From a virus (lineage: Duplodnaviria; Heunggongvirae; Uroviricota; Caudoviricetes), in IMG/VR virus record IMGVR_UViG_2711768003_000013: a stretch of DNA of 4,752 nucleotides. One strand, written 5' to 3'. This document shows, in pieces, positions 1 to 4,752 of this stretch. Every line of letters starts with the position of its first letter. Within the stretch, counting starts at the first letter, position 1. The notes beneath the pieces were generated by a model. That model saw only the letters and a list, made by a program, of their open reading frames with translations, made no database searches and had not been told where the DNA came from. The position numbers were made by a program, and so were the translations under genes.

Positions 1-79
1 GCTTTGAACTCTTTAGAGTAACGTTGGGTTTTTCTGCTCATTATTAGCTCCTTCTGATGCCATTCTATTTCAGGAAGGA

Positions 80-343
80 GTGTCCGTTAAACTCAGGCTA
101 CCTCAGGTTATTCGCTTCTGGGCATGGGCGGATCAACAAATGATAGACGGTAATGCAGATTGTAACGCTCGCGGCGTTACAAAAAGTGCAATAGATCGCA
201 TCACTTTTATGTCTGGTTTTGCTGATGCGTTAATTCAGGTTGGATGGCTGGTCGAAAATGACGGAGGGCTTTCTCTACCTAACTTTGAACGTCATAACGG
301 AAAAAGCTCTAAAAAAAACGGGCGGTTACAAACGAGCGAGTAA
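80..343 (+). CDS. N-terminal segment (frame a) of a phage replication initiator / replisome-organiser gene
   Basis: ORF track 87 aa. All three forward frames contain stops within 1-57, so the gene starts in this window. GTG at 80 sits directly after AGGAAGGAG (71-79), which is very short spacing; ATG at 140 is an alternative start. The frame ends at TAA 341-343, but protein-like coding continues in the -1 frame from 313. Confidence 0.55.
   Translation: MSVKLRLPQVIRFWAWADQQMIDGNADCNARGVTKSAIDRITFMSGFADALIQVGWLVENDGGLSLPNFERHNGKSSKKNGRLQTSE
161..181. repeat. Perfect inverted repeat TGTAACGC-tcgcg-GCGTTACA inside the replication gene (iteron/operator-like)
   Basis: 8-bp arms at 161-168 and 174-181 are exact reverse complements. 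They share the GTAACGC core with the palindrome at 371-389 and the half-site at 406-412. Confidence 0.6.
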
Positions 344-370
344 CAAAAATACGCGAACTGAAACGAAAAG

Positions 371-389
371 GTAACGCTGCCAGCGTTAC
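371..389. repeat. Perfect inverted repeat GTAACGCTG-c-CAGCGTTAC inside the replication gene (iteron/operator-like)
   Basis: 9-bp arms at 371-379 and 381-389 are exact reverse complements with a 1-nt spacer. It is preceded by an A-rich stretch (342-370). Confidence 0.6.
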
Positions 390-414
390 ACAAACGGATC
401 AAAAAGCGTTACCA

Positions 415-432
415 GAGGAAGAGGAAGAGGAA
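415..432 (+). repeat. (GAGGAA)x3 tandem hexanucleotide repeat encoding a poly-Glu stretch in frame b
   Basis: GAGGAA at 415-420, 421-426 and 427-432; translated as EEEEEE in the linker of the replication protein. Confidence 0.8.
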
Positions 433-512
433 GATCTAAATACTGATCTCCCCCTCGCCAAAAACGAGCGTCTAAAAAATTCGAGCCGGAGGCTATTGAG
501 CTGCCCGATTGG

Positions 513-782
513 TTGCCGGAAACACTCTGGCATGAGTGGGTCCGGTTCAGACAGGCATTGCGAAAACCGATTCGAACGGAGCAGGGCGCTAACGGGGCGA
601 TACGGGAACTGGAAAAATTCCGTCAGCAGGGTTTTACACCTGAGCAGGTGATTCGACACAGCATCGCCAATGAATACCAGGGCCTGTTCGCGCCGAAAGG
701 TGTTCGGCCTGAGACGTTGCTCCGACAGGTTAACACCGTCTCGTTGCCGGACAGTGCGATCCCGCCAGGCTTCAGGGGGTAA
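513..782 (+). CDS. C-terminal DnaT-like (primosomal protein I-like) domain segment of the replication gene; coding probably begins upstream near 477-480
   Basis: The frame is open from 447. The TTG at 513 used by the ORF track has no Shine-Dalgarno. The product ends ...NTVSLPDSAIPPGFRG, closely resembling the C-terminal end of E. coli DnaT (...SEPDSQIPPGFRG, recalled from memory). Stop TAA 780-782 lies 6 nt before the dnaC-like ATG, mirroring the chromosomal dnaT-dnaC arrangement. Confidence 0.6.
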   Translation: MPETLWHEWVRFRQALRKPIRTEQGANGAIRELEKFRQQGFTPEQVIRHSIANEYQGLFAPKGVRPETLLRQVNTVSLPDSAIPPGFRG

Positions 783-788
783 CGGACC

Positions 789-1221
789 ATGAAAAATATT
801 GCGACAGGCGGCGTTCTGGAACGCATCCGCCGACTGACCCCGCCACATGTAACCGCCCCATTCAGAACGGTAGCGGAGTGGCGCGAGTGGCAACTTGCTG
901 AAGGCCAGAAACGTAGCGAGGAGATCAACCGCCTGAATCGCCAGTTGCGGGTGGAAAAAATTCTGAATCGCTCAGGCATCCAGCCGTTGCACCGTAAATG
1001 CTCGTTTGCGAATTACCAGGTGCAGAACGACGGCCAGCGATACGCGTTAAGCCAGGCGAAATCCATCGCCGATGAACTGATGACCGGGTGTACAAATTTT
1101 GCGTTCAGCGGAAAACCTGGTACCGGGAAGAATCACTTAGCGGCAGCTATCGGGAATCGCCTGCTGAAAGACGGTCAGACAGTGATTGTGGTTACCGTGG
1201 CTGATGTTATGAGCGCCCTGC
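789..1221 (+). CDS. dnaC: DnaC-like replicative helicase loader (prophage paralogue), 5' part only; 3' part lost in the N run
   Basis: The first 144 codons resemble E. coli DnaC along their length: MKN... start, NRSGIQPLHRKCSFANYQV, Walker A FSGKPGTGKNHLAAAIGN, and VTVADVMSAL. A G-rich SD (GGGGG 774-778) precedes the ATG at 789. A full-length DnaC (about 245 aa) would end near 1525, inside the N block. Confidence 0.9.
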
Positions 1222-2693: not shown

Positions 2694-3380
2694 ATGACCC
2701 CAATAAACATATTTATGACAGTTGCTGATTTCAAACGGCCCAAATTGGAGCTCCCAAACGGGGCAAACAAACTACTACTGCACTCTTGCTGTGCTCCATG
2801 TTCCGGTGAGGTGATGGAGGCGCTTCAGGCCTCGGGAATCGACTACACCATCTTTTTCTACAACCCGAACATTCATCCTCAGAAAGAGTATTTAATTCGT
2901 AAGGATGAGAATATTCGCTTTGCTGAACAACACGGCGTGCCGTTTATTGATGCTGATTACGACACAGACAACTGGTTTGAACGAGCCAAAGGAATGGAAT
3001 GGGAGCCCGAACGAGGGATCCGTTGCACCATGTGTTTTGACATGCGTTTTGAGCGGACAGCGCTGTACGCCGCTGAAAATGGTTTCAGTGTGATCAGCAG
3101 TTCACTGGGCATTTCACGCTGGAAAAATATGCAGCAGGTTAACGACTGTGGGCGGCGAGCCGTCGCGCATTATCCGGGCATGGTGTACTGGGATTATAAC
3201 TGGCGCAAGCAGGGCGGCTCGTCCCGTATGATTGAAATCAGCAAGCGCGAAAAATTCTATCAGCAGGAATATTGTGGCTGTGTGTATTCTCTGCGCGATA
3301 CCAATCTACACCGCAAATCTCAGGGACGCCCTCTTATCAAAATTGGTCAACTCCACTACGGTAAAGAAGAGAAGGAGTGA
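2694..3380 (+). CDS. queH: QueH/DUF208-like protein (putative B12-independent epoxyqueuosine reductase homologue)
   Basis: 228-aa ORF with the motifs I associate with the QueH family: [11 protein letters not shown] near the N-terminus, C-x2-C (CTMCFD) mid-protein, and EYCGCVYS near the C-terminus. No good SD precedes either ATG 2694 or in-frame ATG 2715, so the start is uncertain. Confidence 0.7.
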
Positions 3381-3494: not shown

Positions 3495-3559
3495 CCCAGT
3501 TAACATTACGCGTCCGGCAAGACGCTTAACATTAATCTGAGGCCAATTTCATGCTTTGC
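3495..3559 (-). ncRNA. Candidate sok-like antisense RNA (about 60-65 nt) complementary to the mok-like translation initiation region
   Basis: Predicted from the minus-strand promoter. The transcript would contain a composite hairpin (GUUAA-GCGUC-UUGCCG-GACGC-GUAAUG-UUAAC) followed by a U-rich stretch (GGGGCUUUUCUCU). Ends are approximate. Confidence 0.3.
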
Positions 3560-3763
3560 ACATGTAGGTTAGCCTCTTACATGCCGAAAGGCAAGGAGAA
3601 GCAGGCTATGAAGCAGCAAAAGGCGATGTTAATCGCCCTGATCGTCATCTGTTTAACCGTCATAGTGACGGCACTGGTAACGAGGAAAGACCTCTGTGAG
3701 GTACGAATCCGAACCGGCCAGACGGAGGTCGCTGTCTTCGTAGACTACGAATCCAGGAAGTAA
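3551..3763 (+). CDS. mok-like upstream reading frame (in-frame N-terminal extension of hok, 70 codons)
   Basis: ATG at 3551 with GAGG at 3538-3541 (9-nt spacing). The other two frames were checked and contain no ORF overlapping hok, so the only upstream ORF is this in-frame one. Its role as the translational coupler is inferred from the hok/sok paradigm. Confidence 0.35.
   Translation: MLCTCRLASYMPKGKEKQAMKQQKAMLIALIVICLTVIVTALVTRKDLCEVRIRTGQTEVAVFVDYESRK
3566..3594 (-). promoter_or_regulatory. Predicted promoter of a sok-like antisense RNA (minus strand: TTGCCT, 17-nt spacer, TAACCT)
   Basis: On the reverse complement, -35 TTGCCT corresponds to + coordinates 3589-3594 and -10 TAACCT to 3566-3571. 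The predicted start near 3559 points leftwards across the mok-like ATG (3551) and its SD (3538-3541). Confidence 0.35.
3608..3763 (+). CDS. hok: Hok/Gef-family type I toxin (51 aa small membrane peptide), HokD-like
   Basis: Translation MKQQKAMLIALIVICLTVIVTALVTRKDLCEVRIRTGQTEVAVFVDYESRK. As I recall E. coli HokD/RelF, it matches until the last seven residues. AAGGAGA at 3594-3600 lies 7 nt before the ATG; stop TAA 3761-3763. Confidence 0.9.
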   Translation: MKQQKAMLIALIVICLTVIVTALVTRKDLCEVRIRTGQTEVAVFVDYESRK

Positions 3764-4012: not shown

Positions 4013-4300
4013 ATGAAAATCGAAGAATTGCGTGAAATTTTTAGTGAAAATGGCCTCTATGCTGTGCGCGTTGAGAATGGAGCGATTGTCAGCCATTGCC
4101 GCATTAGATGTTTGCAATCTCAACAAAGGAAGAGCGGTGCTGTGTTATTTTATTTTTGTAATGGACTTCTGACGGACGGTTTTATTTTGCGTGAGGACGA
4201 ATTTGTCACATCATTACGGGTTTTGAAAGAGATTGGTTTTAAGGCTGGTTTTCTGCTTTTGCTGAAGAATAAACTCATCTACAATCTTGAGCAGGATTGA
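4013..4300 (+). CDS. Hypothetical small protein (95 aa), no family recognised; AT-rich accessory-type gene
   Basis: ATG at 4013 with GGAAGGA about 9 nt upstream; stop TGA 4298-4300. Visibly more AT-rich than neighbouring genes. The hydrophobic C-terminal stretch KAGFLLLLKNKLIY is noted. No motif that I can assign. Confidence 0.5.
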   Translation: MKIEELREIFSENGLYAVRVENGAIVSHCRIRCLQSQQRKSGAVLFYFCNGLLTDGFILREDEFVTSLRVLKEIGFKAGFLLLLKNKLIYNLEQD

Positions 4301-4338
4301 ACTCCTGCTGTGTAACACCGTGCCACCGGAGAAAGCCG

Positions 4339-4692
4339 ATGGCACATATACAACTGGTCAAACAAACCTCTTCCGGATTACTTCTCCCGGCGACGCCGGA
4401 GAGTTGCGATTTTCTGCATCAAATCAAAATAGGTGAGTGGATACACGCAGACTTTAAGCGTGTGTGTAACTACGCATTCCACAAGCGTTTTTTCAAACTC
4501 CTGCAACTGGGTTTCGATTACTGGACTCCGGTCGGTGGGGCGATCACGCCTCGCGAACGAAAACTGGTGTCCGGTTTCGTTGATTACCTGTGTGAATCAG
4601 TAGGCCGGGAACATACGCCAGCTCTGAGCGAAGCCGCAGAGCAATTGAGGTGTACTGGCAATAGCGGACACTACCATTTGTTCTTTTTTTAA
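4339..4692 (+). CDS. DUF1367 (YbcN-like) nin-region protein, possibly truncated at a T7 tract
   Basis: ATG at 4339 with GGAGA 8 nt upstream is preferred over the TTG at 4297 used by the ORF track. The N-terminus MAHIQLVKQTSSGLLLPATPE...FHKRFFKLLQLGFDYWTP matches my recollection of YbcN/DUF1367 proteins. The ORF stops at TAA 4690-4692 inside TTTTTTTAA, while the -1 frame is open from 4665 to the window end. Confidence 0.65.
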   Translation: MAHIQLVKQTSSGLLLPATPESCDFLHQIKIGEWIHADFKRVCNYAFHKRFFKLLQLGFDYWTPVGGAITPRERKLVSGFVDYLCESVGREHTPALSEAAEQLRCTGNSGHYHLFFF

Positions 4693-4752
4693 GCAGCCAT
4701 CTGATGATATTTTTCCCTGAAGGCTGCCGGGGAGATATTCCCCAGACGAGAG

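Follow-up and report, generated by a model that had tools for sequence, protein, structure and literature searches.

The window analysed here is a stretch of 4,752 nucleotides (nt) from the IMG/VR virus record IMGVR_UViG_2711768003_000013 (Caudoviricetes), and the element in question is a set of GTAACGC palindromes and half-sites lying within the gene for a phage replication initiator. These GTAACGC elements are likely to be the double-stranded DNA binding sites of a lambda-like phage replication origin located inside its own initiator gene, and as far as literature searches show, an origin has not been described before in this initiator family. The reading is carried by selection that acts on the sites as DNA, their fixed position and phasing, their covariation, an adjoining AT-rich purine tract, and their linkage to the N-terminal domain (N-domain) of the initiator, each of which is established by comparing related loci. 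We further infer that the N-domain is the binder of the sites and that the origin fires. An earlier note on this window had proposed lambda-like origin iterons inside the initiator gene, and sequence comparison, covariation, phasing and the purine tract now support that proposal.

GTAACGC occurs six times on the two strands of the window, at positions 162, 174 (minus strand), 371, 383 (minus strand), 406 (minus strand) and 2497, compared with an expectation of 0.46 +/- 0.66 copies from dinucleotide shuffles, none of 200 of which reach six. Five of the six copies fall within 162-412 and are arranged as two palindromes and a half-site, as the earlier note had correctly described and placed them. 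A repeat finder returns a perfect inverted repeat at 160-182 (TTGTAACGC-N5-GCGTTACAA, with TCGCG as the spacer and a core at 162-180), a second at 371-389 (GTAACGCTG-C-CAGCGTTAC, with a 1-nt spacer) and an additional half-site copy, AGCGTTAC, at 405-412. The two inverted repeats are the sole perfect palindromes in the window with arms of at least 9+9 nt and a loop of up to 6 nt. In a first-order Markov simulation, such palindromes average 0.14 per window. With 7-nt arms, both palindromes read GTAACGC-N5-GCGTTAC and span 19 base pairs (bp).

Cluster 1 (160-182) is located inside the coding sequence of the N-domain, where it encodes C-N-A-R-G-V-T, and cluster 2 (371-389) is located in the linker-coding region, where it encodes G-N-A-A-S-V-T. 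The terminal half-site (AGCGTTACC, 405-413, minus strand) follows the previous half-site by 23 nt, or two helical turns, and is read in the other frame to encode A-L-P. A degenerate direct half-site with one mismatch (GTAATGC, 150-156, plus strand) lies 12 nt upstream of the half-site at 162, and alignment reveals a perfect GTAACGC at the same place in phage 613R10. The sixth copy of the motif (2497-2503) is isolated in a zinc-ribbon open reading frame (ORF) at 2133-2546, has no partner half-site and is probably a chance occurrence.

For the comparative analysis, an alignment headed by a distant member is used to collect distant N-domain loci, and the resulting 252 loci with relatives of the N-domain are reduced to 100 at <85% nucleotide identity. 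The sampled proteins share 33-70% identity and come from Enterobacteria, Vibrio, Pseudomonas, Xanthomonas, Ralstonia, other Burkholderiales, Planctomycetes and Verrucomicrobia including Akkermansia, with the known phages epsilon15, CP2, TL-2011b and phiPSA1 among them. Motif positions are counted from the start of the domain in 30-nt bins across the 100 loci. GTAAC and GTTAC are concentrated almost solely in two regions of the gene, namely nt 120-210 (92 GTAAC and 169 GTTAC) and nt 330-420 (177 and 149), over a background of approximately 1-2 of each per bin. The palindrome TAACG-N7-CGTTA is present at cluster 1 in 90 loci and at cluster 2 in 93, and the distance between the two palindromes has a median of 216 nt.

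Each cluster also has a characteristic layout, with a median of three half-sites in cluster 1 and four in cluster 2. Neighboring half-sites are separated by 11 or 12 nt or by multiples of these distances, and 12 nt, corresponding to four codons, is the modal direct spacing. At 11-12 bp, the phased half-sites are predicted to occupy one face of the helix. Cluster 1 (around nt 150) usually reads GTAACGC-N5-GCGTTAC-N4-GCGTTAC. Cluster 2 (around nt 340-420) usually consists of one to four direct GTAACG copies in 12-nt steps, the palindrome, and then GCGTTACC, and can also be described as carrying one or two inverted half-sites past the palindrome. Almost every member of the family has GCGTTACC directly ahead of its purine tract. 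The earlier note had also listed a degenerate everted GTTAC/GTAAC pair at 322-345. This pair is present in the window but is lineage-specific rather than conserved, and it is not counted in the origin: the bin at 300-330 is poor in the motif across the family (1 GTAAC and 5 GTTAC), and the following two bins contain 99 and 70 GTAAC. The pair is probably a by-product of coding A-V-T...R-V-T.

Because cluster 1 overlaps an almost invariant peptide, G-N-A-x-x-V-T, a test at the level of individual codons is needed to separate selection on DNA from selection on protein. Within the motif, a single codon dominates at each residue: Gly50 is encoded by GGT in 95 of 99 cases, Asn51 by AAC in 92 of 92, Ala52 by GCT in 80 of 95, Ser54 by AGC in 52 of 52, Val55 by GTT in 93 of 96, Ala58 by GCG in 39 of 40, Leu59 by TTA in 61 of 80 and Val66 by GTT in 74 of 80. 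Outside the motif, the codons for Gly34 are used 38, 31, 24 and 5 times, those for Gly96 38, 31, 23 and 8 times, and those for Val109 31, 28, 16 and 15 times. Synonymous positions are saturated except where half-sites are spelled, and comparably conserved residues elsewhere use all codons. The earlier note had suggested looking in homologues for palindromes conserved at a cost to synonymous sites, and this is the pattern found in the 100 loci.

Other features of the coding sequence point in the same direction. The half-site is also spelled in a second frame as GCG TTA Cnn (A-L-x, including A-L-P and A-L-L), and in lineages with a variant half-site the supposedly invariant Asn is replaced by His, Cys or Asp, tracking the DNA. 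The linkers are otherwise unalignable, yet the motif is present in all of them. Since the 12-nt unit equals four codons, it accounts for the tetrapeptide repeats (G-N-A-x) of the linkers as well as for an insertion of four codons in the window lineage (150-161), which represents an extra half-site that is now degenerate. The codon comparison demonstrates that the sites are under selection as DNA, independent of the encoded protein.

Covariation between the clusters provides a further line of evidence. Four independent lineages with a different half-site use the same variant in both clusters, including in unpaired direct copies. These variants are GTCACG/CGTGAC in locus L143 (four copies in cluster 2 and four in cluster 1), TTGCGC/GCGCAA in L198 (five and four), GTGACG/CGTCAC in L242 (five and two) and CTAACG/CGTTAG in L250 (three and two). 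Because the variants match in both clusters, one sequence-specific reader would be expected to recognize both. All five lineages with a changed half-site core (L143, L232, L247, L198 and L242) have replaced both Thr105 and Val109, which lie in a conserved basic helix of the N-domain (K-x-R-A-L-T-x-x-R-V; Fisher p = 8e-4 with phylogeny ignored). This association hints at residues 105 and 109 as a possible specificity determinant of half-site recognition.

The adjoining purine tract is similarly conserved. In the window, the candidate DNA-unwinding element (414-448, plus strand) opens with 21 nt of purines only, AGAGGAAGAGGAAGAGGAAGA (414-434), and continues into the AT-rich TCTAAATACTGATC. Across the family, a purine run starts 1-2 nt past the last half-site in 70 of the 100 loci and has a median length of 22 nt, compared with a background median of 8 nt. 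The repeat AGAGAAGAG, found in 76 loci, is read in either of two frames (49 and 26 loci), giving REEKRRE or EKRREE, and is therefore conserved as DNA. In the 40 nt that follow the last half-site, the mean GC fraction of 93 loci falls from approximately 0.55 to 0.40 and 0.35, and 86% of the nucleotides on the coding strand are purines. The A-rich stretch at 342-370, which the earlier note had placed in the role of the AT-rich region, is present in the window but lacks conservation in the family and is not the AT-rich element of the origin, as the tract shared by the family is the one at 414-448.

The intact initiator is represented by two 262-codon reference genes, from E. coli FDAARGOS_944 (L002, 2898-3686; protein WP_038340159) and phage vB_EcoS-613R10 (L001, 2896-3684), the latter of which carries the annotation ‘DNA replication protein O’. 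In a search against PHROG, the intact protein matches phrog_2509, labeled ‘replication initiation protein’, with an expectation value (E) of 1e-89, and also phrog_9474, which bears the same label. Pfam offers no match to the intact protein at E <= 1, the N-domain matches no family in Pfam and NCBIfam searches, and Foldseek against the PDB returns nothing significant. The N-domain is probably a winged helix. With respect to homology with lambda O, the Pfam Phage_rep_O N-terminal domain is not found in the protein, and the ‘O-like’ phrog_678 aligns to residues 77-236 only.

The initiator is a mosaic. Its last approximately 90 codons, together with the DnaC/IstB-like gene downstream, match ydaU-ydaV of the K-12 Rac prophage at 93% identity, and its first approximately 140 codons are common to phages ZX5 and TL-2011b (67% nucleotide identity), in which the C-terminal half of the protein is DnaT-like. 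The conserved N-domain spans amino acids 1-113. Among family members, C-terminal domains differ (YdaU-like, DnaT-like and others), as do the downstream partners, which include DnaC/IstB-like ATPases, a DnaB-type helicase and a primase-helicase. The sole constant neighbor of the sites is the initiator’s own N-domain. The architecture is that expected of an origin-binding ‘replisome organiser’, in which a constant DNA-recognition module is joined to exchangeable recruiting modules.

A mechanism for the putative origin can be proposed from these features. The intact initiator would comprise the N-domain, probably a winged helix, followed by a conserved basic helix, the linker and the exchangeable C-terminal domain. 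Its gene would present two arrays of 7-bp half-sites, the second of which adjoins an AT-rich tract of about 40 bp that is purine-rich on one strand. Initiator dimers may bind the palindromes while additional protomers occupy the phased half-sites, and the two arrays, approximately 216 bp apart, would then join in a nucleoprotein complex resembling the lambda ‘O-some’. The adjoining AT-rich tract would subsequently melt, and the C-terminal domain would recruit the helicase loader or helicase, which is predicted to be the DnaC-like YdaV here and a DnaB-type helicase or primase-helicase in relatives. In the Rac-like lineage, a third palindrome located 14 nt upstream of the ATG could serve as an autoregulatory operator and add autoregulation to this scheme.

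The third palindrome (TGTAACGCTGCGAGCGTTACA, at 2864-2884 of L002) is perfect, abuts the Shine-Dalgarno sequence in intact relatives and lies approximately 192 nt before cluster 1. It is confined to the Rac-like lineage, apart from a half-site at -36 in L092. In the window copy it is absent, as an IS600 element has removed both the upstream palindrome and codons 1-35. Neither this palindrome nor the IS600-cut state of the gene had been recognized in the earlier note. Positions 1-105 (minus strand) are the end of the IS600 element (IS3 family), comprising its terminal inverted repeat (...AAACTCAGGCTACCTCA) and the first part of orfA, and this end truncates the initiator gene. Matches to IS600/IS3 transposase regions cover 1-105/109 at 99-100% identity in thousands of E. 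coli records and in Shiga toxin (Stx) phages, and similarity to intact initiator genes begins at approximately 105.

What follows is a replication-initiator pseudogene of the phrog_2509 family (106-782, plus strand, stop codon at 780-782), which lacks codons 1-35 and contains two frame-breaking lesions identified by alignment. The first is an A8 run at 311-318 (plus strand), a +2 insertion relative to the A6 of intact relatives. The second, near 448, is a 10-bp deletion at 441-459 (plus strand), in which TCCCCCTAAA was lost between direct repeats. Judged from the alignment, the A8 run is a pseudogene lesion and not a programmed slippery site. A programmed -1/+1 frameshift site was considered as a candidate and rejected, as the intact relatives have A6 and a single continuous ORF. 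The earlier note had suggested that GTTAC/GTAAC at 325-344 might form a frameshift-stimulating hairpin. Because the frame is broken by the A-run insertion in a pseudogene, this idea fails; the intact gene is one 262-codon ORF, and the GTTAC/GTAAC pair is not conserved. The 87-amino-acid N-terminal domain offered in the same note as a test reagent is likewise unsuitable: it derives from a chimeric, cut-off ORF (80-343) whose first 26 nt lie in IS600 and whose stop arises at the +2 frameshift.

Several other explanations for the sites can be compared with the origin reading. The main alternative, which is considered unlikely, is that the sites bind the initiator solely to limit expression of the initiator gene and the genes downstream, in the role of autoregulatory operators or transcriptional roadblocks, with the origin located elsewhere. 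Palindromic sites do fit dimeric, repressor-like binding, plasmid iteron initiators autorepress at inverted repeats, and the intact Rac-like relatives have the palindrome ahead of their start codon. However, the upstream palindrome is limited to a few lineages (the bins from -120 to -30 contain 9 GTAAC and 5 GTTAC in all), and the arrays lie deep in the ORF beside a conserved AT-rich purine tract that operators do not need, with 3-7 phased half-sites per array, more than repression requires. Autoregulation could also coexist with an origin role, especially at the upstream palindrome. It is distinctly less probable that the reader is a protein other than the initiator, such as a host factor, a Cro/CII-like regulator or an adjacent methyltransferase. 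Binding by the initiator is itself deduced from sequence, and DNA methyltransferase genes adjoin the initiator gene in some loci. Such a reader would nevertheless have to be available in hosts from Enterobacteria to Planctomycetes and Verrucomicrobia, flanking genes vary by locus, and the N-domain containing the sites is the only element that always accompanies them. The co-occurrence of altered half-sites with altered basic-helix residues argues weakly in the same direction.

The palindromes could instead form hairpins or cruciforms in single-stranded nucleic acid, acting either as messenger RNA stem-loops that affect stability or translation or as single-strand initiation or primosome-assembly signals used with a DnaT-like domain. 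A stem of 7-9 bp is possible at each palindrome, complementarity of the arms is kept in the variant lineages, and a DnaT single-stranded DNA-binding domain is present in some family members. This explanation is nonetheless very improbable, given that the DnaT-like domain occurs in only part of the family and that the stem keeps its very sequence, beyond its pairing, across phyla, with free variation in the 5-nt spacer. Unpaired direct half-sites with 11-12 nt phasing are equally conserved and covary with the rest, a pattern that a hairpin model leaves unexplained, and the window matches no Rfam family, the sole hit being a chance-level fluoride riboswitch (1035-1070, E 0.66). Scarcely credible is a motif that merely reflects the conserved peptide G-N-A-x-x-V-T, or recombination sequences at a module boundary, with no function at the DNA level. 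The N-A...V-T residues are almost invariant in the N-domain, and domain swapping does take place just downstream of cluster 2, but this explanation is already contradicted by the codons, whose choice is fixed within the motif and random outside it. Also against it are half-sites spelled in the other frame, amino acids that follow the DNA in variant lineages, and the presence of the motif in every one of the otherwise unalignable linkers.

Some observations weigh against the origin reading. Searches of the literature on oriJ and Rac, ydaU/ydaV, the epsilon15 origin and GTAACG iterons found no publication on the origin of this family, and binding, unwinding and origin activity are read from sequence for every member. 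Nearly all lineages share one half-site, which is unexpected if origins diversify against cross-talk as lambdoid iterons do, and the array within the coding region of the DNA-binding domain has no lambda counterpart. The purine tract averages just 60-65% A+T, milder than many unwinding elements. The association of half-site variants with residues 105 and 109 is not clean, since eight loci with other residues keep GTAACG and phylogeny is uncorrected. Finally, the initiator in the window is dead, so any function here needs initiator supplied in trans.

A search of plasmids for a minimal replicon of this family returned two records only, both of them whole phage genomes. One is the Pusillimonas sp. 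T7-7 ‘plasmid’ NC_015459 (L254, 41,205 bp), which is in fact the complete, circular genome of a temperate siphophage. The family initiator and a DnaC-like ATPase (37307-38816) are the only replication genes recognizable in it, which lends weak support to an origin of the type proposed.

The remainder of the window fits a decayed prophage fragment. Positions 525-1221 match the ydaU-ydaV segment of E. coli DH1 (K-12 Rac) at 93% identity. The C-terminal-domain coding remnant of the pseudogene (513-782, plus strand) is common to K-12 Rac YdaU, is the only part matched by hhalign, and encodes a domain that presumably contacts the DnaC-like loader. It is followed by the 5' part of a ydaV-like gene for a DnaC/IstB-type helicase loader (789-1221, plus strand; Pfam IstB_IS21, E 5e-7; ydaV in relatives), which runs into an N run of 472 nt. 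Hidden under this run (1222-1693) are the 3' half of the ydaV-like gene and the first part of a DUF977 gene, and the listed 447-amino-acid ‘ORF’ at 789-2132 is an artefact of the mask. Further downstream, the fragment encodes QueH, an epoxyqueuosine reductase (2694-3380, Pfam E 2e-65), and a hokD-type Hok/Gef toxin (3551-3763, E 1e-22), in an order that matches E. coli FDAARGOS_944. Both ends of the window (1-105 and approximately 4645-4752) are IS600 ends in the same orientation, and the right-hand copy truncates a DUF1367 gene (4297-4692), whose product breaks off near residue 117 of 198. Two IS600 copies thus bracket a 4.5-kb prophage fragment. By its sequence features, the element in the window is a relic with intact sites and a destroyed initiator, held between two copies of IS600.

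One initiator/half-site pair (GTAACGC) is kept almost unchanged from Enterobacteria to Planctomycetes and Verrucomicrobia, and the self-referential arrangement, in which part of the array lies inside the coding sequence of the domain that presumably reads it, may freeze the recognition code. Relics such as the one in this window, with perfect sites and no initiator, might then answer the initiator of any incoming family phage, either titrating it as an origin decoy against superinfection or firing in situ and amplifying the IS600-bracketed segment, a scenario regarded as unlikely. If the origin reading is true, it provides a specific, testable origin for temperate-phage initiators of a large family that spans phyla and is absent from Pfam. 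The family is present in Salmonella phage epsilon15, E. coli phage TL-2011b, Xanthomonas CP2-like phages, Rac-like prophages and many prophages of Pseudomonas, Burkholderiales, Akkermansia and Planctomycetes, and its proteins are now annotated merely as ‘hypothetical’, ‘primosomal protein I’ or ‘replication protein O’. The almost invariant peptide G-N-A-x-x-V-T and the tetrapeptide repeats of the linker are dictated by DNA sites rather than by protein function, which is relevant to modeling and annotation. A defined recognition sequence and its natural specificity variants GTCACG, GTGACG and TTGCGC offer material for studying initiator-DNA recognition. For the locus itself, the practical message is that it is a decayed, IS-bracketed prophage fragment.

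A precedent is oriλ, in which 19-bp inverted-repeat iterons and an AT-rich tract occupy the central part of gene O (PMC7466680). As in oriλ and the lambdoid and Stx phage origins, the proposed origin lies within the initiator gene, and like oriλ it uses repeated 19-bp sites with dyad symmetry, with the main cluster in the linker-coding part between a DNA-binding N-domain and a helicase-recruiting C-terminal domain. Extra sites add amino acids to the protein in both systems, and module exchange moves the N-domain together with its sites. The lambda tract has a strand asymmetry, and the AT-rich tract of about 40 bp that adjoins the sites here shares this purine/pyrimidine bias. In contrast, the N-domain is not detectably related to lambda O, the site sequence differs (GTAACGC), and the sites consist of 7-bp half-sites with 11-12 bp phasing, where lambda has four to six iterons of approximately 19 bp. 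A second array lies approximately 216 bp upstream within the DNA-binding-domain coding sequence, the half-site is constant across phyla without diversification, and the helicase partners vary (DnaC-like, DnaB-like or primase-helicase).

The ydaU-ydaV region of the K-12 Rac prophage, which is associated with oriJ, has the same gene order (cro-like, ydaT/cII-like, initiator and DnaC-like ydaV) and also carries repeat clusters at equivalent places in the gene. Unlike the family described here, the N-domain of K-12 YdaU is DUF1376, with no N-terminal similarity detected by hhalign, and the N-terminal and linker parts of its gene lack GTAACG. The element in the window is accordingly placed outside the K-12 Rac YdaU/oriJ type, with which it shares only the C-terminal approximately 90 codons and ydaV. 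K-12 Rac ydaU has its own direct and inverted repeats, (A)TGTTCAAACA, at gene nt ~142 and ~350-460 (L253, E. coli DH1, 1042-1359), and these sit just ahead of the A-rich/CCCCCTAAATCCCCC junction where homology to the window resumes. Joint inheritance of the N-domain and its cognate sites would predict this pattern, in which a different N-domain comes with different repeats at the same positions. The TGTTCAAACA repeats in K-12 ydaU are a sequence-level candidate for the Rac origin oriJ, for which no sequence-level mapping was found in the literature.

The iteron-type plasmid origins provide the third comparison. Their repeat units are approximately 22 bp long, unlike the 11-12 bp unit found here, and the location of the present sites within an ORF is a further difference. 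Like the origins served by pPS10 RepA, F RepE and R6K π, the proposed origin has a putative winged-helix initiator, a single recognition sequence repeated in both direct and inverted orientation, an adjoining AT-rich region and, in some lineages, an inverted repeat just upstream of the initiator gene that is a possible operator.

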